Shown one piece after another: positions 49,877 to 64,000 of a DNA stretch of 64,000 nucleotides. The DNA lies in assembly GCA_964425955.1 (NCBI GenBank), contig CAYROQ010000011.1:1917-65916 (forward strand). Direction: 5' to 3'. Each line of letters opens with the position of its first letter. Positions within the stretch are counted from its first letter, which is position 1. The position numbers were made by a program, and so were the translations under genes. This stretch comes from an uncultured Sideroxydans sp. (GTDB taxonomy: Bacteria; Pseudomonadota; Gammaproteobacteria; Burkholderiales; Gallionellaceae). A model generated the notes under the pieces. The model worked only from the letters and a program-made list of their open reading frames with translations, did no database searches and was not told the DNA's origin.

Positions 49877-50647
49877 TCAGGCTTTGAAATAGAACTCCAT
49901 CTTGATACCGGCCAGTTCAATAATGTCATGATCATTCAACTGATGCGGCTGCTCGCCCGCTGAAGACCCATTCACCAAAGGAAAACTGCCTCCTTCAACG
50001 TGTGTGATGAAATATCCATGAGGGCGGCGCGCAAGTACGGCCACCTGTACGCCGGGCTTCCCTAGTGTGGTGAGGTTCTTGCTGAGCTCCAGCTCTTTAC
50101 CCAGATTAGGGCCATTCAGAATCTGTATCACGGCTGCCGGTGTTTGGTTGACTACCGGAGCAGGAGTCGCGGGTGAAACATCGACCTTTGGGGAAGTCGC
50201 ATTGAATTTTGTGGTCGATTCATGTTTGGGCACACCACTCACCACATCGACTTGGGTTCGGTTAAAACTCTCATCCGCTTTGGGAGCGGGTGACCCCTTG
50301 ACTGGTGCACGCAACACCATGGTCTTTTCGAAATCGTCAGCCGATGTCTGGGTTGGCTGGTCGTTCAAATATTTAAGTTTGTATTTTCCGATTTCAATGA
50401 TGTCGCTATTCTGAAGAAAATGCTTTTGTGTGGACAGTCCGTTGACAATGGAGCCATTGGTGCTGCCCAAATCTTCAAAGAATGAGTCGTTCAAAATAGT
50501 GATGATGGCCGCATGCTCGCTGCTCACAGCCAAGTTGTCTATGACAATATCATTGTGCGGTTTGCGCCCTATAGTGGTCCGCTCTTTGGTAAGCGGATAC
50601 TCTTTGATCACCGCCCCGTCCATACTCAGTATCAGTTTTGCCGACAT
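49877..50647 (-). CDS. FHA-domain protein (N-terminal canonical FHA, C-terminal FHA-like domain)
   Basis: 256 aa. The N-terminal FHA reads TTIGRKPHNDIVIDNLAVSSEHAAI...DLGSTNGSIVNG...IIEIGKYKL. A Pro/Thr-rich linker follows. The C-terminal part (LTTLGKPGVQVAVL...LVNG...IIELAGIKMEF) is less canonical. Confidence 0.82.
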   Translation of the reverse strand: MSAKLILSMDGAVIKEYPLTKERTTIGRKPHNDIVIDNLAVSSEHAAIITILNDSFFEDLGSTNGSIVNGLSTQKHFLQNSDIIEIGKYKLKYLNDQPTQTSADDFEKTMVLRAPVKGSPAPKADESFNRTQVDVVSGVPKHESTTKFNATSPKVDVSPATPAPVVNQTPAAVIQILNGPNLGKELELSKNLTTLGKPGVQVAVLARRPHGYFITHVEGGSFPLVNGSSAGEQPHQLNDHDIIELAGIKMEFYFKA

Positions 50648-50678
50648 TTCAATTTTCCTGTATTAACTTGTTACAGCT

Positions 50679-51506
50679 TCAATTCTTAAACCAAGATTTC
50701 AACTTCGTCCACCATCCTTTGGGAGTGGCATAACTCGCCTTGACCTTGACCAGAACTACGGACACATTATCGCGACCACCGTTGTCATTTGCCTGTTCCA
50801 GCAGCTGACTGGCCGCCAGCGTCAGGTTGCCCCGCAGCATCTGTACCGTGGAGCAGATATCTTCATCCTCCACCATATCGTTCAATCCATCCGAGCAGAA
50901 CAGGTAGATGTCATCGACCTCAACCTTATGTACATGCAATTCCGGAACCACATCGGCCTCGACACCCACCGCGCGGGTCACCAGATTCTTGTTTTTTGAT
51001 AGTTTTGCCAGTTCTTTGCTGATGACACCGCTATCAATCTGATCCTGCAACAGAGAGTGGTCTCGCGTGATGGTTTCCAATACCTCCCCACGCAGGCGAT
51101 ATAGGCGTGAATCTCCCACGTGCGCAACAACCAGACGGTCATCGTAGAATAAACCGGCAACGATGGTGGTTCCCATTCCCGCATATTGTGGTTGACTTTG
51201 CGCAGCGTTGAAAATGGAAAGATTGGCCTTCTTAACATTGTCGCGCAATAACACCACTCCGAACTCGTCACCTGATGCCACGTCCGTCTTCGCCGGATCA
51301 ACTTCTTCGAGGCGGTGCCTGATCTCGCTGGTCAGCACAGAAACCGCAATGCCGCTGGCAACTTCACCCGCGTTATATCCACCCATTCCGTCAGCGAGTA
51401 CAACGAGGCCGTGCTGCGCATCAAAGGCCAGGCTATCCTCATTATGTGAACGCACCATACCCGGATGGGTTTGGCTGACTATCTCCAGCGCCTCATTCAC
51501 GTTCAC
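50679..51506 (-). CDS. PP2C-family Ser/Thr protein phosphatase
   Basis: 275 aa. The start is a GTG with a GAGGA Shine-Dalgarno. The motifs are HPGMVRSHNEDS, VLADGMGGYNAGEVAS, HVGDSRLY, FCSDGL and GGRDNVSVVLV. Confidence 0.9.
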   Translation of the reverse strand: MNVNEALEIVSQTHPGMVRSHNEDSLAFDAQHGLVVLADGMGGYNAGEVASGIAVSVLTSEIRHRLEEVDPAKTDVASGDEFGVVLLRDNVKKANLSIFNAAQSQPQYAGMGTTIVAGLFYDDRLVVAHVGDSRLYRLRGEVLETITRDHSLLQDQIDSGVISKELAKLSKNKNLVTRAVGVEADVVPELHVHKVEVDDIYLFCSDGLNDMVEDEDICSTVQMLRGNLTLAASQLLEQANDNGGRDNVSVVLVKVKASYATPKGWWTKLKSWFKN

Positions 51507-51528
51507 GTCCTGTCCTCGCCCTTGTTAT

Positions 51529-54051
51529 TCATTTCAGTGTCGCAGCACACTGCCGAAGCGCCTCTGCCATCGCCGCGCCATTTTCATACCGGTCTTCAAC
51601 CTTCTTCGCAATTGCCTTTTCGATTATGGCGACCACACATGGCGGGACATCCGGGTTGATCATCAGAATGTCCGTTGGCGGTTCATTGGCGATTCTGAAC
51701 ATCAATTGCGCCATCGAATCACCCACGAAAGGAAGCTTACCACACGCCATTTGGTAGAGACTCACTCCCAGCGAGAACAGATCGGATTGTCCGCCGATCT
51801 TGGCTCCCGACAGCTGTTCCGGTGACATGTAGGAGGGGGTTCCCAACACCATGCCGGTCTTGGTTTTACTGGAATCGGTGATGCGCGCGATGCCGAAGTC
51901 GGTCACCTTAACGGTATCGCTTTCCAGGTCGTACATGATATTGGCCGGTTTGATATCGCGGTGCACCACATTCAACGAATGTGCATAACCCAGAGCTTCT
52001 GCCACGCGCGCCACGATACTCAGCACCTGTGGCAAAGGCAGCAGACTGTCCGGCTTGGTGTACGCCACCAGATCCTTGCCTTTGAGGAATTCCATGGCGA
52101 TATAGGCCAAGTCATGCTCCTCACCGGCATCGTACATGGTGACGATGTGCGGATGGTTCAATCGGCCGGCTGTCTCGGCTTCACGGAAGAAGCGGGCTTT
52201 CACCTCTTCCAATTCATCCGCCTCGAACTCCTGCGCCAATGCCATGGTCTTGATCGCCACGACGCGGCTGATCTTGGGATCTTTGCCGAGATACACCACC
52301 CCCATGGCACCCTTGCCCAACTCCTTCTCGATCTGGTAGCGCCCCAACATCGGCTTGGCCATCCCGACCTGATCCAGCTTCATCGTGCTGTCATTGCCCC
52401 TGCCGGATGACCCGCCGAGAATAATCGTTTCTGCCATGGCTTTGGATTGCGCGGTCCGAGCTTCCAGATCGCGGAATTTCGGATTGTGGTCGGCCATATA
52501 TTTGAACACCGACTCCGCCTTGTTGAACTGGCGTTTGCGCTCAAAATCCAAACCGAGGTTGTATAAAACGTCCATCAAACTATCGTCCAGCGGCACCTTG
52601 CGGAACTTGTCGAAAGCCATATCAAGCTGGCCTTGCCCCTGGAAGGCCAAACCCAACATCCTGTTGCTTTCGGCCGAATCGGCATCGGATTTTTCCTTGC
52701 CTTTTTCGGTCATCAGGAAACGTTTGGTCGTCAGCAACAAATGACCGACCAGCAGAAGTGCGGCAGGCAACATCAATTGCAGCCACATCGCTTGCGTTGT
52801 CATGAGCACAAAATGGATCGCCAGCAACAACACGAATAGTCCGCCGGTGATCGCGGCCCCCAGGCCGGCGCTCAAGCGTGGCAACAACAAGATCAGATAC
52901 AAAGCAACCGTCAAGAATATACCCAGTTCCGCCCACGCGCCCCAACTGGGAGTGATGAAGAAATCTTGCTTCAAGATGCTGGAGACAGAATGTGCCAGCG
53001 TGAGTACCGGCGGTGTCGCCGCAGAGATGGGAGTGACCTGCGTCGCACCGACACCTGCTGCGGTTGAACCGATCAAAACGATCTTGTCCCTGTATTTTTC
53101 TGGCGGGATCTTGCCGGTCAACACATCGTAAAAGGAGTCCACTTGAAAAGCGGGTTTGTCATCCCGGTCAGCATAAAAATACGTAAACATTCGCAGCGCC
53201 GGATCCGTCGCGATACTGAGATTACCCAGCTTGACACCCTCACCCAAGGTCACGTTGATATCCTTTGGCTCAAGGTTCAGGCTCTTCGCTGCGATCATCA
53301 ACGACAGGGAAGGATAGTACTGGTCGTAATAACCCACCACCAGAGGCTCGGTGCGTATCCCTCCGTCAACATCGGGAGTGGCGTTCAGATGACCGATTGC
53401 GACAGCCTGTTGTCCCAGCACAGGGATCGGAAACAGCGCATTGAATGACGGGACTGGCAACGGCGCATCGGCAGAACCCTGCACATTCACCAGATTATTT
53501 TTCACAACAAAGTCAGGCAAGGGCGAATCCGGATTGCCTTGGGGCTCACCCAACTCAAAATACAAGCCGAGCAATACATTGTTGACCTTGGCCATGCTCT
53601 CGGCCAATTTTTGATCATTATCCAGATGCAGTAACGCATCCTGCATCAAGCCTTGCAGCTCTTTCCATTCGGCCGGATTGGTATTCTTAAGGGAGGTCTT
53701 TTCAAGAACGCTGGCGATATTGAGGATGTAGTCCAGGCCTGCATCTACTTGCGGCTCGAAGAATAGGGCGGTCTGTCCGACGACTTTAGGCTGACCTTCG
53801 GCCAGTATCTCCAGCATCTTCCCCTGAATCTCACGCGGCCAAGGCCAACGTCCAATATTCGCGATGCTGGTATCATCAATAGCAATCACGGCAATCTTGT
53901 CGCTGGGAGTGCGTGTTGAGGCCACGACTCCCCAGTCATAGGCTTTGCGCTCCAAACTCTGGACAACTCCCGTATTTCCGCTAAACAAAAATACCAGGGC
54001 GACAACTAAAGCAGTGAACCAGTCTGATTTATGAAAGGATGTTTTTCTCAT
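51529..54051 (-). CDS. CHASE2 sensor - TM - helical repeat - Hanks-type Ser/Thr protein kinase (kinase at the C-terminus)
   Basis: 840 aa. The CHASE2 hallmark is KIAVIAIDDTSIANIGRWPWPREIQGKMLEIL. TM helices lie at about aa 375-450. The kinase motifs are LGKGAMGVVYLG, VAIKTM, HRDIKPANIM, VTDFGIA and GTPSYMSPEQ. Confidence 0.9.
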   Translation of the reverse strand: MRKTSFHKSDWFTALVVALVFLFSGNTGVVQSLERKAYDWGVVASTRTPSDKIAVIAIDDTSIANIGRWPWPREIQGKMLEILAEGQPKVVGQTALFFEPQVDAGLDYILNIASVLEKTSLKNTNPAEWKELQGLMQDALLHLDNDQKLAESMAKVNNVLLGLYFELGEPQGNPDSPLPDFVVKNNLVNVQGSADAPLPVPSFNALFPIPVLGQQAVAIGHLNATPDVDGGIRTEPLVVGYYDQYYPSLSLMIAAKSLNLEPKDINVTLGEGVKLGNLSIATDPALRMFTYFYADRDDKPAFQVDSFYDVLTGKIPPEKYRDKIVLIGSTAAGVGATQVTPISAATPPVLTLAHSVSSILKQDFFITPSWGAWAELGIFLTVALYLILLLPRLSAGLGAAITGGLFVLLLAIHFVLMTTQAMWLQLMLPAALLLVGHLLLTTKRFLMTEKGKEKSDADSAESNRMLGLAFQGQGQLDMAFDKFRKVPLDDSLMDVLYNLGLDFERKRQFNKAESVFKYMADHNPKFRDLEARTAQSKAMAETIILGGSSGRGNDSTMKLDQVGMAKPMLGRYQIEKELGKGAMGVVYLGKDPKISRVVAIKTMALAQEFEADELEEVKARFFREAETAGRLNHPHIVTMYDAGEEHDLAYIAMEFLKGKDLVAYTKPDSLLPLPQVLSIVARVAEALGYAHSLNVVHRDIKPANIMYDLESDTVKVTDFGIARITDSSKTKTGMVLGTPSYMSPEQLSGAKIGGQSDLFSLGVSLYQMACGKLPFVGDSMAQLMFRIANEPPTDILMINPDVPPCVVAIIEKAIAKKVEDRYENGAAMAEALRQCAATLK

Positions 54052-57561: not shown

Positions 57562-57604
57562 TACCAAAATGAAACGGGGTCACCGGATATAGTCCGGCGA
57601 CCCC
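57562..57604 (-). terminator. Rho-independent terminator after the barrel gene
   Basis: The minus strand has the hairpin GGGGTCGCCGG-N7-CCGGTGACCCC, followed by GTTTCATTTTGG. Confidence 0.65.
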
Positions 57605-57630: not shown

Positions 57631-59781
57631 TCAGAAATCCCAGCGTACCCCGCCTGAGAAAAAGAAACGTGTCGTCTTGTTCGTTTGTTGCCCACCGCCA
57701 TAATTGGTAATTTCATACCCCACATCGGCATCCAGAGTGATCTGCTCCTTGATCCGATACGCTCCGCGCACCATGGGCGAAAAACGTTTCGTGGTGCCAC
57801 CGAACTGATCCTTCTGGTTATACAACTGCATCGAAGAATCGATTGCCCAGCCCTGCTTAAGCTGGGTGTGGTTGTACAGGAACAGCGAAAGCCCGTTGAC
57901 CGCGCTGCTGGTATTGAGTGTGGTGCTAGCCGACCAAATGTCACCTACCTGCAACAGATTGCTGCCGATCACTTGCCCCGTGATGCTTTTCTCTGTGCCA
58001 CGGCTTGCAGAGGCAGGCAGAACGCCCTCAAGTGCCGTTTCTCCACTGGCACTCAACCCGGTGATGCTGGACAAACGAATATCTCCGCCCACTTGCCATT
58101 TGTCTTTATACGGGAGTGTCACACCCAACTGCCCACTATTGGCAGTGGCTGTACGTGCCAGTGCCAAACTGCGCAGGCTGCTTGCCGAAGTCGCCTGCAA
58201 CAGCGCATTGATGGAAGATGTACCCGCTCCGTTCAGTGCATTGCGGATACTTAATGACGGCGTCTTGCGATGATCGAGCATGAAATTAACCATGGCATTC
58301 GATACATCGACAGTACCCATCACCTGCGCGGCATTCAGTGCTTTGAAATTCGCGTCGTAGTCCACCAAGGCGAAATAGGATTTCTTATCCTGGTAATACC
58401 TCCACTCGGCACCCACCGCGCGACGATCCAACAACCCGTCCACATTCTGATTAATGCCGTAGAAAGACATCGCACCCGCATCGACACTTGCCCCGAAAAA
58501 TGTGGGTTTGCTACCCGTGGAATAATCCGCCAATGTGCCCGCCACACCGTTGAAACGCAAATCCTGCGAGTCACCATAAGAACCGGCCAATCCGTCGAAG
58601 CGACCCATGACACCGCCGCCATAAGCGGACTGCCGCCCCACACGCAACAGGTAACTCTGTTTACGGCTCTTGATTTCGCCGTAGGCAGAACTCACGCGGT
58701 TGATGCTGGACTTATTGGATAACAGATTCAGCGTGTTCACATCCCGGAACACCAGACGACCGTCGTAGTCTTCGCTGAGATAACGCTCGGAAGCATCCAC
58801 GCTGCTGATCAGCATGGACTGATCGGTCATAGAGGTGGAAATGGTCTCGGGCGCATTGTTGAAAGTCTGGGTCGTATCGAACTTGGATCGACCATAGTAG
58901 TAACGCGACGAGATACTGCCGAAAGTCACCAAACGTGCCTTTTGTGTTTTCTCTTTGGTCTCGATGATGCCAACCTCGGTGTCTTTGCCGGACATACTTG
59001 CCAAGCGTTGCGCCACTTGCGCAGCGCCTTCGCCGTCCGGATACAGCCTCAAGTACAGTTCATATTCGACCCGTGCTTTGTCCAGCTGCTTGGCACGTTC
59101 ACGCGCCACCCCCACCCATTCCTGACCGTCTTGTGAAAAATCATTGGGCGGCAACAACAGCAATTTGTTGAACGCATCCACGGCCGCTTCGTTGTTCTTC
59201 GCCACCAAGGCTTCTCGCCCCCGCACCATCAGGGTGCGTGCCTGCGCGTTGATATCCAACATGGCAGCCGCTTCGCTGGTAAGCGATTCCGCAGCTACTG
59301 CGGCGGGTGCCGGTTTGATGGCAGGCAGCAGGGGTAACGGTCCCGTGGCCATCGGTCTTTTCTCGGGCCGGATGGTGACCAATAAACTGCGGTTGTCTTT
59401 GCCAACCGCCACACTGTATTCGGCTTCGCGCGAGAACTGCACGACAAGTTTTGGCTTGGTTTGCTGGTCACGTGTTGTCACGGTAAAGCTCGGAATGAGA
59501 TTGGAAGGAGGTGATTTCCTAACCTCGTTATCCACCCAGTTCTCAGTATTCGTCGCACCCTGTACGCGGTCATAGAAGATTTCCAGCGTCTTGCCGTGGC
59601 TCTCGGGGAAATGGCGCTGATACTGAACCGGTCCGGTCAAACGGATTGTGGCGACGACGCCTTGCTCACGAAACTCAAGACCCACGTCATCCAAAGGCTG
59701 CGCTTCTGCAACGGTGCAACCCATCCACACCCATAAAACCAACAAAAACCGTTTCAATTTTGAAACTTGACCGATAGCCAT
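57631..59781 (-). CDS. Outer-membrane beta-barrel protein with N-terminal AMIN-like and TPR-like modules
   Basis: 716 aa with a signal peptide (LLVLWVWMGCTVAEA). Aa ~30-140 form a beta-rich module (ATIRLTGPVQY...KTLEIFYD...LLVTIRPE) that I call AMIN-like only tentatively. Aa ~170-260 are helical and TPR-like. Aa ~285-716 form Gly/Ser/Tyr-rich strands of alternating polarity ending in GGVRWDF, with the terminal aromatic residue typical of OMPs. Confidence 0.7.
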   Translation of the reverse strand: MAIGQVSKLKRFLLVLWVWMGCTVAEAQPLDDVGLEFREQGVVATIRLTGPVQYQRHFPESHGKTLEIFYDRVQGATNTENWVDNEVRKSPPSNLIPSFTVTTRDQQTKPKLVVQFSREAEYSVAVGKDNRSLLVTIRPEKRPMATGPLPLLPAIKPAPAAVAAESLTSEAAAMLDINAQARTLMVRGREALVAKNNEAAVDAFNKLLLLPPNDFSQDGQEWVGVARERAKQLDKARVEYELYLRLYPDGEGAAQVAQRLASMSGKDTEVGIIETKEKTQKARLVTFGSISSRYYYGRSKFDTTQTFNNAPETISTSMTDQSMLISSVDASERYLSEDYDGRLVFRDVNTLNLLSNKSSINRVSSAYGEIKSRKQSYLLRVGRQSAYGGGVMGRFDGLAGSYGDSQDLRFNGVAGTLADYSTGSKPTFFGASVDAGAMSFYGINQNVDGLLDRRAVGAEWRYYQDKKSYFALVDYDANFKALNAAQVMGTVDVSNAMVNFMLDHRKTPSLSIRNALNGAGTSSINALLQATSASSLRSLALARTATANSGQLGVTLPYKDKWQVGGDIRLSSITGLSASGETALEGVLPASASRGTEKSITGQVIGSNLLQVGDIWSASTTLNTSSAVNGLSLFLYNHTQLKQGWAIDSSMQLYNQKDQFGGTTKRFSPMVRGAYRIKEQITLDADVGYEITNYGGGQQTNKTTRFFFSGGVRWDF

Positions 59782-59871
59782 TCTTTAATCCCCCCACGAT
59801 TCGATGTAACTTCAACAACCAAATAACCAGGCTGCCCTGCCTATAGTTTCGCGACCGTTAGAACAGAATAA

Positions 59872-60942
59872 TTAATTCCACTTAGTGTATGCGGTTCCCT
59901 GATTTCCCAAAGGCCTGTGACACCCGCTTGCGGAACAATCCCCGCCAGGGTTGGCAACCTTATCAGGATTATGCAGGCTATTTAACTTCTGCATTTTTCC
60001 AAGGTAGTTATTTGCCAAGTGACAAGTCGTACAAGTAGAAGATACATAGGTGTGCAAAGTTGCTCCCGTCACCACCGCATTACCAATACCGGAAGTATGA
60101 CAGGCCGTACAACTCGCCGAGGCGTTGTAGGGAATGTGGTTGGCCGGTTTAGCGCCAAGCGCGCCCGCGAATGATATTGTGCTCAGGTGACATTGATTGC
60201 ATTCCATGGGCCAACCTATAAAACTGTTGTGGCTGATTGGCCAACCTTTCGCGACCGATCCATTATGGCAACTCGAACAAGCTCCCCCCGTGTTGTGTTT
60301 AAAACGAGCGGGTAACCAACTGTTAAACCCGTGGCAGGAATCACACTCAAGAGTCCCTTTAAGCGCAGGAGCCGCGTGACTTGCCGGTTTGCGGTTTGAA
60401 ATGGAAACATCCGGGCTGCTGATGTGGCAAGTTGAGCACGTACCTGCCGCTATTTCCGTGTGATTCCAGCTTGCAGGCAACCATGCGGAGGATCGGTGAC
60501 AACTGTCACAAGTTTTGGATGCTTTGTTTCCGGCGGAATGACTGGACGGCTTGCTTCTGGAAAGCCTGCCGTTATGGCAGATTTCACACTTTCCCGGTTG
60601 CGCATTCGCATGGTTAAACCGTGCGCCAATGAAAGTTGCCGTGTTGAAGTGGCAGGTTTCACAGGGTGCATCGGTCACGATATGGGCACTGGATTTTGGT
60701 GTTGCCACAATGCGTTTACCCAATGCGTGGCAACCGTCACACGCTTTCGGTGTGCCTTTGAAAACACCTCCGATGTGGCAGGTTTCGCAAGCGGCTGTGG
60801 CATGACCGCCAGTGAGTGGAAACCCCGTCGACATATGGTTAAAGTCGCGTCCACTCAGTTGAGTTTCGGCCATGACCTGAAGAGAAAATACAGCTAATGC
60901 GATGAAAAACAAGTTGCCCGCAATTCGAACTGGTCGTTTCAT
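59872..60942 (-). CDS. Multihaem cytochrome c (11 CXXCH + 1 CX4CH), secreted
   Basis: 356 aa with a signal peptide (FFIALAVFSLQVMA). The motifs in order are CETCH, CDGCH, CETCH, CEICH, CDSCH, CSTCH, CDSCH, CSSCH, CNQCH, CTACH, CTTCH, followed by CSASGCH. A GGAGG Shine-Dalgarno lies upstream. Confidence 0.9.
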   Translation of the reverse strand: MKRPVRIAGNLFFIALAVFSLQVMAETQLSGRDFNHMSTGFPLTGGHATAACETCHIGGVFKGTPKACDGCHALGKRIVATPKSSAHIVTDAPCETCHFNTATFIGARFNHANAQPGKCEICHNGRLSRSKPSSHSAGNKASKTCDSCHRSSAWLPASWNHTEIAAGTCSTCHISSPDVSISNRKPASHAAPALKGTLECDSCHGFNSWLPARFKHNTGGACSSCHNGSVAKGWPISHNSFIGWPMECNQCHLSTISFAGALGAKPANHIPYNASASCTACHTSGIGNAVVTGATLHTYVSSTCTTCHLANNYLGKMQKLNSLHNPDKVANPGGDCSASGCHRPLGNQGTAYTKWN

Positions 60943-61189
60943 GAACTACCTCCGTCAGTTAAACGATGCCCTGTAATTCAAATTTAAAATCAAATTTTTC
61001 GTCTTGACTTGGAACAACAAAGTTAAGTTCTTGAAGCTCTAACCCGGCGAGAAACATCTGGGCAACCCAATCCAATCCCTGAAGTTGTATACAAATTACC
61101 TCTCGACAATTCAATAATTTCTTTACGACTATGCCCCAAGCGGCGAGCCGCGCATTGATTGAATGCGCGGCTCCAAGTCTATTCATAAC

Positions 61190-62365
61190 CTACCAGCCCC
61201 CATAACTGCCAGAGTTCGAATGTTCGTGACAGCCCGTGCAGTTGTTCCCGCTACTTCCGTCATGCGATTTTCTGGTTTCTTGATTGTTTCCCGTGTAACT
61301 GTTGGGGGTGATATGGCAGGTTGCACAGGTACGCGAAGCAACACTGTTGGCATGCAATACGGTTACATTGACCTTTGCCAATCCAGTATGGCAATTACTG
61401 CAGTTAGCTCCCGGATTGAACGGAATGTGGTTGCTCGGCATAGCACCTAACGCGCCCAAGAATGTCGTTGTTGAAAGGTGGCACTGATTACATTCTATCG
61501 TTGTCACAACGTGACCAGAACTCTTGCCAATGGCTAACGTACCATTGTGGCAACTTGAGCAAACTGCCGTTGTATTGTGGTTGTAGCGGGCAGGCGACCA
61601 TCCGCTGGTAACGTGACAATCTTCACACGGTTTTTGGCCTTTGATCGCGGCGGCTGTGTGGCTCGCGGGTTTGCCCGTCGCTGCACTGCCATTGTGACAA
61701 CTTGAACAGACTGCAGGCTTATTGTGTTTGAAACGAGCCGGTGACCAACCGGTGAAATAATGGCAGTCGTCACATTCGTTGATACCCTTGATCAGTGGTG
61801 CCGCGTGGCTTGCCGGTTTGCTTATTTCACTTTGCCCACCCGGAATGTGGCAGGTCGTACACGTTCCCGGACCGACTCCGTTGTGGTTCCAACTTGCCGG
61901 TAGCCAAGCACTTGAACGATGGCAACTGTCACAGGCTTCCGTCAGTTTCTTGCCGTTGCTATGTGAAGAAGGTTTGGTAATGGAGAGTCTGCCGTTATGG
62001 CAGATGTCGCATTTTCCCGTTTGCGCATTCGCATGGTTAAAACGGGCGCCGTAGAACGTGGCGGTGTTGAAGTGGCAAGTCTCGCACGGCGCATCGGTCA
62101 CGATGTGTGCACTGGATTTGGGCGTCGCCACGATGGCTTTCCCCAACGCATGGCAACCGTCACAGTTTCTGGGTAAACCTTTGAACACACCGCCGATGTG
62201 GCAGGTCTCGCAGGCTGCCGTGGCATGCCCTCCGGAGAGTGGAAAACCCGTGGACATATGATTGAAGTCGCGTCCGGCGAGTTGCGATTCTGCCACGACT
62301 TGAAGTGAAAGTGCGGTTAGCGCGATGGCAATCACGTTGCCCAAAATTCGTCCTAGTCGTTGCAT
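61190..62365 (-). CDS. Multihaem cytochrome c (14 CXXCH), secreted, paralogue of 59872..60942
   Basis: 391 aa with a signal peptide (VIAIALTALSLQVVA). I counted 14 CXXCH motifs by eye. By eye, most of the first ~160 aa are identical to the 356-aa paralogue. A GGAGG Shine-Dalgarno lies upstream. Confidence 0.9.
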   Translation of the reverse strand: MQRLGRILGNVIAIALTALSLQVVAESQLAGRDFNHMSTGFPLSGGHATAACETCHIGGVFKGLPRNCDGCHALGKAIVATPKSSAHIVTDAPCETCHFNTATFYGARFNHANAQTGKCDICHNGRLSITKPSSHSNGKKLTEACDSCHRSSAWLPASWNHNGVGPGTCTTCHIPGGQSEISKPASHAAPLIKGINECDDCHYFTGWSPARFKHNKPAVCSSCHNGSAATGKPASHTAAAIKGQKPCEDCHVTSGWSPARYNHNTTAVCSSCHNGTLAIGKSSGHVVTTIECNQCHLSTTTFLGALGAMPSNHIPFNPGANCSNCHTGLAKVNVTVLHANSVASRTCATCHITPNSYTGNNQETRKSHDGSSGNNCTGCHEHSNSGSYGGW

Positions 62366-62413
62366 GAACCACCTCCGTCAGTTATCGATACCCTGTAATA
62401 CAAGTTTTACAAA

Positions 62414-64000
62414 CTATTTCTTTTTGACCACAACCTTGCCGGTTTCCTTGCCCGCCACCACCACACCCAGCTTTATATCTTTCCAAGTGTTGCCGTCATG
62501 GCAACGGTCGCAGCGGTCACCGAAATTCCCGTTGTGAACGTCATCCCGGTCATGACAACTGCCACAGGAGCTGGACAACACCACTTTCTTATCCATCGGT
62601 TTGCTGTGGCACGAATAACATTTGTTTGCCGATTTCTTGTGTGGTCCGTCCAGTTTGAAATCGGTCTTGTTGTGGTCGAAGTCCCAAGTTTCCCACGAGC
62701 GCGTAGAGTGGCAGACCTGACATTCGGTTCCCAGGCGGCGCTTGTGAACATCGTCTTTTTCATGACAGCCCATACATTCTTTGGGGGCATCCTTGAACAA
62801 AGGCGTCAGGTGACACTTCTTGCAGGCAACCAGAAAGTGCCTTCCCAGTAGCGGGTATTTGGACATGCGCTGATGGTCGAACGTGGTCTTGTTCCAAGAT
62901 TCCGCTCCGTGACAGGTCTCGCATTTTTTGCCTTCCTGTCCTTTATGCTTGTCGTCTTTCTCGTGACAGGAGAAACAATCCATCGGCAACTTGTCTTTGA
63001 CCAGATCACCCTTATGGCAGGCGGTACATTTCAGCGGCGCGGGTGATTTGTGCTTGCCGAGTAACGGGAATTTGGTCTTCTTATCGTGATCGAAGACCGA
63101 CTTCTTCCAATCATTTTCGTCGTGACACGTCTCGCATTTGGTGCCGAATTTGCCCTTGTGCGACTTGTCGTCGTCTTTCTTGTGGCAAGCGATACACGTC
63201 ATTTCGAGCTTGTCTTTATACAAGTCTCCTTTGTGGCAGCTGGTGCATTTCAGCGGCGCGCGGTGTTTTCCCAGCAGCGGGAATTTGGTTTTTTTCTCAT
63301 GATCGAAGGTGATCTCTTTCCAATCTTTTTCGGTATGGCAGGTCTCGCACTTCGGCCCAAATTTCCCCTTATGAGCCTTGTCGTCATCTTTCTTGTGGCA
63401 GGCATTACACAGCTTGGGGGTGCCTTTATATTTTTTGTCGATATGGCATTTATCGCACTTCACTTCTTCATGCTTGCCCAATAACTTGAACTCGGTCTTG
63501 TCGTGATCGAACTTGGTCGTTTTCCAGTCTTTTTCACTATGGCACTTGGCGCAGTCTGTACCCAGCTTGCCCTTGTGAGCCTTGACGTCATCTTGCTTGT
63601 GACACGCGACACAGGTCTTCGGGGTATCTTTGTATTTGTGCTCGATGTGGCATTTGACGCACTTCACATCGACGTGTTTGCCCAGCAATTTGAAATGGGT
63701 CTTGTCGTGGTCGAACTCGGTGGTCTTCCAGTCTTTGTCGATATGGCACTTGGCACAATCCGTCCCCAGACCGCCTTTGTGTTTGTCGTCTTTTTTGTGA
63801 CAGTCGTTGCAGTAGGTCGGTGCCTGGCTGAATTTCTTGTCCGGTTTGTGGCAGCTGGTGCATTTCACCTTTTCGCCCAGGTGAGCGCCCTTAAGGACAA
63901 AGTCGGTTTGTTTGTGATCGAACTTGGCGTGATCGAATTCCGCAATCTTGGCATCACGGCCTTTGTGTTCGGTGTGACATTCCTTGCATTCTTTTGCTGC
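62414..64000 (-). CDS. Large multihaem cytochrome c built from tandem trihaem (c7/c3-like) modules, 5' end outside window
   Basis: The frame stays open to the window edge. My own translation upstream of the ORF-track GTG reads AAKECKECHTEHKGRDAKIAEFDHAKFDHKQTDFVLKGAHLGEKV. There are 21 CXXCH motifs in the 484 tracked residues plus at least 1 upstream. The recurring unit is CxxCH..DWK...FDHDKT.F.LLGKH...C.KCH...YK..PK.C..CHKKDD..HKGK.G. Confidence 0.9.
   Translation of the reverse strand, partial: AAKECKECHTEHKGRDAKIAEFDHAKFDHKQTDFVLKGAHLGEKVKCTSCHKPDKKFSQAPTYCNDCHKKDDKHKGGLGTDCAKCHIDKDWKTTEFDHDKTHFKLLGKHVDVKCVKCHIEHKYKDTPKTCVACHKQDDVKAHKGKLGTDCAKCHSEKDWKTTKFDHDKTEFKLLGKHEEVKCDKCHIDKKYKGTPKLCNACHKKDDDKAHKGKFGPKCETCHTEKDWKEITFDHEKKTKFPLLGKHRAPLKCTSCHKGDLYKDKLEMTCIACHKKDDDKSHKGKFGTKCETCHDENDWKKSVFDHDKKTKFPLLGKHKSPAPLKCTACHKGDLVKDKLPMDCFSCHEKDDKHKGQEGKKCETCHGAESWNKTTFDHQRMSKYPLLGRHFLVACKKCHLTPLFKDAPKECMGCHEKDDVHKRRLGTECQVCHSTRSWETWDFDHNKTDFKLDGPHKKSANKCYSCHSKPMDKKVVLSSSCGSCHDRDDVHNGNFGDRCDRCHDGNTWKDIKLGVVVAGKETGKVVVKKK

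Follow-up and report, generated by a model that had tools for sequence, protein, structure and literature searches.

Positions 57631 to 64000 of a 64,000-nt stretch of DNA from an uncultured Sideroxydans sp. (contig CAYROQ010000011.1; here called the window) contain genes for three multihaem cytochromes c (MHCs) and one outer-membrane barrel protein. The question raised by this locus is whether these genes encode a known conduit for extracellular electron transfer, a new class of conduit, or proteins with unrelated roles. The cluster very probably forms the distal section of a porin-cytochrome operon of PCC3 type in an uncultured member of the Gallionellaceae, similar to Sideroxydans or Sideroxyarcus, and not a new class. 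PCC3 was already named in 2017. The cluster is thus one further copy, and the find is real but not new.

Gene content and probable assignment to PCC3

The four genes are called g1 to g4 in the order of their transcription. Their lengths were taken from a list of open reading frames (ORFs).

62414-64000, minus strand: g1, 3' 528 codons, frame open at the window end
61190-62365, minus strand: g2, 391 amino acids (aa)
59872-60942, minus strand: g3, 356 aa
57631-59781, minus strand: g4, 716 aa

The spacers are 48 nt between g1 and g2, 247 nt between g2 and g3, and 90 nt between g3 and g4. A motif scan found 22 CXXCH motifs in the part of g1 that lies in the window, 14 in g2, and 11 plus one CX4CH in g3. 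It found none in g4. All cysteines of the cytochromes are within haem motifs, and 12 to 24 motifs per protein is far above chance. Pfam searches confirmed c7/c3-type multihaem domains in g1 to g3. An earlier note on this DNA had described four co-directional minus-strand genes with these haem counts and gaps and with a terminator behind them. All of its checkable details were confirmed.

The sequence past position 64000 was retrieved from a 50-kb metagenome contig (L001), which carries the same genes and was found by exact-protein look-up. It overlaps the window by 12,811 nt with 0 mismatches, so it stands in for the missing sequence. The g1 gene starts about 237 nt past the window end. The full protein contains 607 aa with a signal peptide and 24 CXXCH motifs, or 25.3 aa per haem. 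Pfam Cytochrome_C7 matches it in nine stretches. It is rich in Lys and Asp and consists of eight tri-haem modules of ~68 aa, with module boundaries at 114, 181, 249, 319, 392, 460, and 528.

Two further genes were found on L001 upstream of g1.

L001 4909-5772: inner-membrane protein, 287 aa, ending 22 nt upstream of g1, beyond position 64000
L001 3383-4678, minus strand in the locus: iron-sulfur (FeS) flavoprotein, 431 aa, divergent from the inner-membrane gene, ~1.35 to 2.65 kb past position 64000

The earlier note had placed any inner-membrane partner past position 64000, and the 287-aa predicted inner-membrane protein is encoded there. It contains five hydrophobic segments (residues 10-33, 40-64, 83-101, 98-126, and 264-282). 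It carries WFRWH-X13-H at residue 78, WHIFH-X13-H at residue 262, and SGTFG at residue 119. These WX3HX13H and SGXXG motifs hold in 32 of 34 orthologues. A helical insert of ~130 aa separates transmembrane (TM) helices TM4 and TM5 and is predicted to be cytoplasmic. Searches placed the protein in no NCBIfam family, and the only Pfam match at E<=1, to SAM, is spurious. A profile search against the PDB found no relative, and no sequence or fold relative was detectable. The AlphaFold2 (AF2) model was poor, with a predicted local distance difference test score (pLDDT) of 58, and its Foldseek matches (ABC-transporter helices, E>0.07) were meaningless.

PCC3 was described by He et al. 2017 (PMC5566968) as a porin together with an extracellular and a periplasmic MHC, plus a protein of the inner membrane. 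The extracellular MHC is rich in Thr, Ser, Ala, and Gly. The periplasmic MHC is made of repeats and has a very low residue-to-haem ratio (~26). The inner-membrane protein has ~300 aa and five TM helices, with SGXXG on TM4 and WX3HX13H on TM3 and TM5 (He et al. 2017, PMC5566968). In Gallionellaceae, Hoover et al. 2023 (PMC10734462) reported 26 complete and 11 partial copies of PCC3. In those copies the haems number 21, 24, or 27 in the periplasmic subunit and 10-18 or 26-35 in the extracellular one. The PCC3 copies of Sideroxydans sp. CL21 contain 24+14 and 24+12 haems. In Leptothrix cholodnii SP-6 the periplasmic cytochrome contains 24 haems in 8 repeats (RADAR 113, 181, 255, 324, 392, 462, and 528), and the porin has 22 predicted TM strands.

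Related loci were collected by a genome scan with the g4 alignment. The scan gave 54 loci, all from metagenome-assembled genomes (MAGs) and mostly from Gallionellaceae, and they were annotated by BLAST against the L001 proteins. In the window and in ~50 related loci the barrel gene stands beside multihaem genes, and the barrel of g4 has ~22 strands in the AF2 model. The periplasmic cytochrome, g1, is built of repeats and falls within the range of 21 to 27 haems. Its modules have almost the same boundaries as the RADAR repeats in the protein of L. cholodnii SP-6. Both g2 and g3 are predicted outer MHCs, rich in A, G, S, and T and built of di-haem units. The inner-membrane protein, which lies outside the window on L001, has five hydrophobic helices, SGXXG, and two copies of WX3HX13H.

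The cluster therefore resembles PCC3 in its four component types, in their order, and in the bacterial family. It also shares the ~66-68-aa repeats of a 21/24/27-haem cytochrome, a 10-18-haem outer cytochrome rich in A, G, S, and T, and a 22-strand porin. The earlier note had flagged a PCC3-type cluster as a possibility, and gene content, gene order, haem numbers, repeats, composition, and inner-membrane motifs all agree with it. A point of difference is that this cluster has two tandem outer-cytochrome paralogues, with 14 and 12 haems. Such paralogues occur in 7 surveyed loci and were noted once for Leptothrix. The beta-sandwich and TPR domains of the porin and the conserved divergent ferredoxin-flavoprotein gene go beyond the descriptions of PCC3 in the literature searched.

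Other known systems fit poorly. The MtrA/DmsE model (TIGR03508) scored 45.9 bits for g2, 33.9 for g3, and 9.1 for g1, against a cut-off of 192.2. The OmcA/MtrC model (TIGR03507) reached 29.2 and 20.2 bits where the cut-off is 209.3, and no lipobox is present. The g4 protein has no MtrB_PioB Pfam match, and MtrB is absent from its top 50 Foldseek matches. The module is thus a porin with multihaem cytochromes that is not Mtr-like, as had been proposed from the sequence. Cyc2 is a fused monohaem cytochrome-porin and was rejected, since g4 has no CXXCH. Uet combines the undecahaem UetJ with the 4-haem UetA, the 3-haem UetDEG, a PPIase, and NHL proteins, and neither the cluster nor its flanks carry genes for tri- or tetra-haem cytochromes, a PPIase, or NHL proteins. 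PCC4 is defined by 4/5/10-haem cytochromes, and the counts here are 24, 14, and 12.

The cluster shares with MtrCAB, MtoAB, and PioAB the logic of crossing the outer membrane with a periplasmic MHC, a barrel, and (in Mtr) a surface cytochrome. It differs from them in haem number (24/14/12 versus 10/10), in strand number (~22 versus 26), and in outer cytochromes that are not lipoproteins. It also has its own inner-membrane partner, predicted to be of a di-haem-b type, in place of CymA or ImoA. Like the Geobacter poly-c7 "nanowire" cytochromes (such as GSU1996), g1 strings together tri-haem modules of c7/c3 type.

That g1 to g4 form an operon is supported by the short gaps and the single strong terminator. 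Two hairpins were found on the coding strand.

57566-57604, minus strand: intrinsic terminator ending the operon, 12-bp stem (9 GC pairs), 5-nt loop
61145-61173, minus strand: perfect 12-bp hairpin, 17 nt past the g2 stop, without a T-run

The terminator stem-loop runs from 57604 to 57576 and is followed by a T-run, with the tail GTTTCATTTT. The site at 57604-57566 is the sole strong terminator-like site on the minus strand in the region. The hairpin between g2 and g3 folds as RNA at -29.6 kcal/mol (z = -4.15), and none of 200 shuffled sequences was equally stable. An AT-rich stretch lies between it and g3. The hairpin may be an RNA-stability or partial-attenuation element, or it may mark an internal promoter or attenuator site. 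A 75-aa ORF between g2 and g3 on L001 was taken as spurious, as its sequence is of low complexity and not protein-like.

Proposed electron path and the divergent flavoprotein

We infer the following path from the gene content, motifs, modularity, barrel fold, and conserved linkage of the cluster. The order of the parts is inner-membrane protein, 24-haem g1, outer cytochromes g2 (14 haems) and g3 (12 haems), TPR-barrel g4, and terminator. The inner-membrane protein would bind two b-haems through the HX13H pairs on TM3 and TM5 and would carry electrons across the cytoplasmic membrane. The g1 cytochrome, a chain of eight tri-haem c7-like modules, would form a wire long enough to span the periplasm. 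A periplasm-spanning role of the periplasmic PCC3 cytochrome was also suggested by Hoover et al. 2023 (PMC10734462). Either or both of the outer cytochromes g2 and g3 would dock on g1 and the ~22-strand barrel through the six-haem module at their N-terminus. The outer cytochrome may be threaded through the barrel or may cap it, with its variable C-terminal di-haem repeats pointing outward. On the periplasmic side, the beta-sandwich and TPR domains of g4 may organise or hold the assembly. Together these parts would give an insulated haem route that links the cytoplasmic membrane with extracellular donors or acceptors, in one direction or the other.

Several points weigh against the PCC3 assignment or against this path. 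Membership in PCC3 was judged from architecture, motifs, counts, and taxon, and not from alignment to the named references, which is the main residual uncertainty. Those references are Sideroxydans lithotrophicus ES-1 (Slit_0867-0870 and Slit_1446-1449), L. cholodnii SP-6, and Sideroxydans sp. CL21. The binding of b-haem by the inner-membrane protein is suggested by its motifs alone. The extracellular site of g2 and g3 is a prediction, and both carry a Sec-type signal and no lipobox. Strict co-transcription of g2 and g3 is unproven because the 247-nt gap between them holds the strong hairpin. The literature hypothesis is that PCC3 takes up electrons from Fe(II) minerals, and PCC3 function is still described as unverified in the literature of 2025-2026. 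In S. lithotrophicus ES-1 both PCC3 clusters were down-regulated on Fe(II) compared with thiosulfate. The ES-1 clusters were also low and not induced on magnetite. These expression data do not support soluble Fe(II) as the PCC3 substrate.

The divergent flavoprotein gene suggests a different connection at the cytoplasmic end. The conduit would be coupled to cytoplasmic NAD(P)(H), and not (or not only) to the quinone pool, through the flavoprotein and the di-haem inner-membrane protein. These two would act as a split NOX/FRE-like or Hmc/Tmc-like TM module, and the system would mainly export reductant or balance redox instead of taking up electrons from Fe(II). We regard this coupling as unlikely but worth setting out. 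The flavoprotein has an N-terminal TM helix followed by KRKK, which would anchor it in the membrane. It also has a 2x[4Fe-4S] ferredoxin domain and an FAD/NAD(P) domain of the TrxR fold, which is nearest to YpdA/Bdr and to TrxR-type ferredoxin-NADP reductases and contains no CxxC. The bulk of the protein is predicted to be cytoplasmic, and the ~130-aa insert of the inner-membrane protein, predicted to lie on the same side, could dock a partner.

All 36 loci whose flank is long enough have the flavoprotein gene beside that of the inner-membrane protein. These include six relocated clusters in other genomic contexts, in which the flanking sucCD and queCE synteny is lost. No description of the flavoprotein as a PCC3 component was found in the PCC3 literature searched. 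A 412-425-aa "other redox protein" was reported by He et al. 2017 (PMC5566968) beside related porin-less clusters of MHC and inner-membrane protein. The same paper noted that the HX13H pair is common to the NOX/FRE ferric-reductase domain. Both observations favour the NAD(P)(H) coupling, as does the higher expression of PCC3 on thiosulfate than on Fe(II) in ES-1.

The points on the other side are as follows. Divergent adjacency is not co-transcription, and the partnership rests on adjacency of the genes and not on physical interaction. The linkage was surveyed within one betaproteobacterial lineage. The flavoprotein could have an unrelated role, in thiol or redox chemistry. No match to the Pfam Ferric_reduct family (PF01794) of the FRD/NOX TM domain was found for the inner-membrane protein. 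The Gallionellaceae are mostly obligate lithoautotrophs, for which dumping of NAD(P)H would be costly.

The likeness to NOX/FRE consists of two HX13H pairs on two TM helices and a FAD/NAD(P)-binding protein encoded alongside. It is a resemblance of motifs, since the parts here are separate polypeptides with an interposed 2x[4Fe-4S] domain. If the flavoprotein link is real, the periplasmic multihaem protein, the membrane protein of cytochrome b type, and the FeS protein on the cytoplasmic side would jointly parallel Hmc and Tmc, of the Desulfovibrio Hmc/Tmc/Nhc transmembrane complexes. The relation to GSU1996 and to these complexes is at the domain level only (HmcA scores 20 bits, with a cut-off of 400), and an outer-membrane barrel is lacking in those systems. 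With the NAD(P)(H) coupling, PCC3 would be a six-part route from NAD(P)(H) to the cell surface, made of the flavoprotein, the di-haem-b protein, the 24-haem wire, one or two outer cytochromes, and the TPR-barrel. We hold this extended route to be doubtful. The PCC3 conduit in its four-component form remains our preferred reading.

Outer cytochromes and the TPR-barrel protein

The g2 protein is rich in A, G, S, T, and N and has Pfam matches to c7, c3, and Paired_CXXCH. A, G, S, and T together make up ~40% of both g2 and g3. Both N-termini resemble Sec signals, with basic residues, a hydrophobic stretch, and a cut between VVA and E in g2 and between VMA and E in g3. No lipobox was seen in either. 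The signal peptides of g2, g3, and g4 were judged by eye, and the N-termini fit the Sec signal peptides that the earlier note had assigned to g2 and g3 and the signal peptide that it had assigned to g4.

The two outer cytochromes are 83% identical over the N-terminal ~145 aa and 46% identical in the C-terminal part. The N-terminal module of ~145 residues contains six haems and has a mean identity of 71% across the g2/g3 family. The C-terminal remainder is 30-46% identical between paralogues, and its length varies by di-haem units. One additional 46-aa di-haem unit is present in g2 compared with g3. Identity at third codon positions between g2 and g3 is 54%. The duplication is therefore old, and gene conversion between the two genes was ruled out on the same figure. 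The conserved six-haem module is probably the docking end of the outer cytochromes. The variable C-terminal repeats would be the substrate-facing end.

The g4 protein contains a signal peptide and three domains.

59701-59781, minus strand: signal peptide, residues 1-27, MAIGQVSKLKRFLLVLWVWMGCTVAEA followed by QPL, assigned by eye, cut between AEA and Q
59368-59694, minus strand: N-terminal beta-sandwich, residues 30-138, eight strands, AF2 pLDDT ~65-80
58996-59277, minus strand: TPR-like helical domain, residues 169-262, five helices, AF2 pLDDT 85-91
57634-58935, minus strand: barrel domain, residues 283-716, ~22 strands, C-terminal WDF

Because orthologues do not keep the Cys of the signal peptide, that residue does not mark a lipobox. 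The g4 protein contains only one Cys. The AF2 model was built from a 17-sequence alignment and has a mean pLDDT of 78, with most of the barrel at 80-95. DSSP assigned 22 strands within residues 283-715 (~433 aa), with a helical insert at 512-542. This barrel corresponds to the strand-rich C-terminal region of ~430 aa noticed earlier in the sequence, which ends in GGVRWDF. Pfam gave sub-threshold matches to TPR_9, TPR_2, and TPR_16 (E 0.003-0.02) and nothing else at E<=1. A weak BamD match was also seen, and homologues have precomputed TPR or YfiO Pfam matches. Foldseek against the PDB retrieved generic outer-membrane barrels (FimD usher, TonB-dependent receptors, and OccK) with TM-scores of 0.2-0.35. 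The top 50 matches pointed to no specific family, and MtrB, BcsC, PgaA, and AlgE were absent from them.

The beta-sandwich had no Pfam match at E<=10 and no PDB profile match. It is strongly conserved among close orthologues and is missing or replaced in many distant relatives. A g4 profile search of 1.84 billion cluster representatives (50%-identity clusters) gave 1,711 relatives at E<=0.001. Many of these, of 800-1,090 aa, align from the TPR domain onward only and have other N-terminal extensions. The TPR domain and the barrel are therefore the conserved core. Different N-terminal periplasmic modules are present in the 1,091-aa relative at L062 10001-13276 and in others, one of which has a faint SPOR match. 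The beta-sandwich of g4 is thus one of several interchangeable domains.

These features bear on whether the cluster is a new porin-cytochrome class, separate from every type named so far. Neither the barrel nor the inner-membrane protein matches a Pfam, NCBIfam, or PDB family, and the cytochromes have no solved relative at E<0.001. A match to the nine-haem cytochrome 1OFW, at E 0.0012, is a domain-level relation. No description of beta-sandwich and TPR modules on the porin was found in the PCC3 literature searched. Against this, each testable defining feature of PCC3 was found here, and the taxon, the haem counts, and the order of the genes are those reported for PCC3 of the Gallionellaceae in 2023 and 2025. 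We consider a new class very improbable. The earlier note had called the conduit poorly characterised or a new class. The first part holds, as PCC3 has no experimentally established function, and the second does not, as the PCC3 features match.

BcsC, PgaA, and PelB have a TPR-like domain followed by a C-terminal barrel. That g4 is an export porin of this kind for polysaccharide or another substrate, with the cytochromes as unrelated periplasmic neighbours, is suggested by the same architecture and by the weak TPR and BamD matches, but it is scarcely credible given a barrel of ~22 and not 16-18 strands, the absence of BcsC, PgaA, and AlgE from the top 50 Foldseek matches, and no glycosyltransferase or export genes nearby. 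The earlier note had named an export porin conserved beside non-cytochrome genes as the finding that would speak against a conduit. The barrel instead keeps its multihaem neighbours in ~50 loci, in varied contexts, and even in very distant relatives.

Related loci and meaning for PCC3

Homologues of g4 were found in Gallionellaceae MAGs (Sideroxyarcus, Sideroxydans, and Gallionella), where they are annotated as "TPR repeat protein" or hypothetical. In loci with enough flank the gene order is near constant. It runs from the divergent FeS-flavoprotein through an inner-membrane protein of ~298 aa, a g1-like cytochrome, and one or two g2/g3-like cytochromes to the TPR-barrel. The g1-like proteins in the 54 loci contain 21, 24, or 27 haem motifs. 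Nearly all g2/g3-like proteins contain 9-18, and one contains 29 (L055). Across ~55 loci, haem number changes in steps of three in the periplasmic wire and in steps of two in the outer cytochrome.

Seven loci are in other genomic contexts (L004, L010, L047, L052, L055, L060, and L062). Six of them are relocated clusters without sucCD and queCE in which the PCC3 unit is kept, namely L004, L010, L047, L052, and L055, with barrels 32-69% identical to g4, and L060.

Tandem outer-cytochrome paralogues are present in ~7 of the 54 loci (L012, L019, L022, L024, L028, L038, and L053). In L053 the second copy is located after the barrel gene. The paralogues of L012, L019, L022, and L038 have the N-terminal six-haem module in common, and their C-terminal parts are strongly divergent.

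Two loci contain partial clusters with a TPR-barrel and one g2-type cytochrome (L005 8387-12079 and L030 4575-8058). No g1, inner-membrane protein, or flavoprotein gene was found in the upstream flank examined (~8 kb in L005 and ~4.5 kb in L030). The L030 cluster is directly 3' of cpoB-queE-queC. These may be cases of the partial PCC3 of Hoover et al. Positions 1-12115 of L058, on a 730-kb contig, encode two tandem TPR-barrel proteins of 764 and 704 aa, each after cytochrome genes. The arrangement resembles a PCC3-like array that was duplicated or is composite.

A very large cytochrome was found in L062 (1283-9934; JGI metagenome 3300045970). It has 2,883 aa and is rich in Thr, Ala, Gly, and Ser. 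It contains 106 CXXCH motifs plus one CX3-4CH. The gene sits between a c7-type cytochrome gene and the gene for the 1,091-aa TPR-barrel relative. The g2 protein is 37% identical to the N-terminal part of this 107-haem cytochrome (E 2e-54). He et al. 2017 (PMC5566968) gave 85 haems as the largest number known.

Other multihaem or extracellular electron-transfer genes were looked for in the rest of the 64-kb window, and none was found. The genes 3' of g4 are sucCD, terC, a universal stress protein gene (usp), and a CHASE2 Ser/Thr kinase gene. Most close relatives keep sucCD, terC, and usp in synteny with the PCC3 cluster. Past them, positions 49877-54051 (minus strand) encode a set of signalling genes, for the 840-aa CHASE2 Ser/Thr kinase, a 275-aa PP2C phosphatase, and a 256-aa protein.

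Among the multihaem systems of neutrophilic iron oxidisers, PCC3 is one of the chief ones still without an explanation. Its barrel family is widespread, with 1,711 50%-identity clusters at E<=0.001, and its cytochromes reach more than 100 haems per protein. The window itself is one more instance, and the comparison of ~55 loci gives PCC3 a testable structure. What deserves follow-up is the conserved flavoprotein partner together with the rules of modularity. A functional flavoprotein link would alter the physiology expected of PCC3. Were the coupling to NAD(P)(H) true, the quinone pool would be bypassed, and this would account for the lack of a PCC3 response to Fe(II) in ES-1. PCC3 would then be an electron-export or redox-balancing device, or a direct uptake route linked to pyridine nucleotides, in lithoautotrophs.

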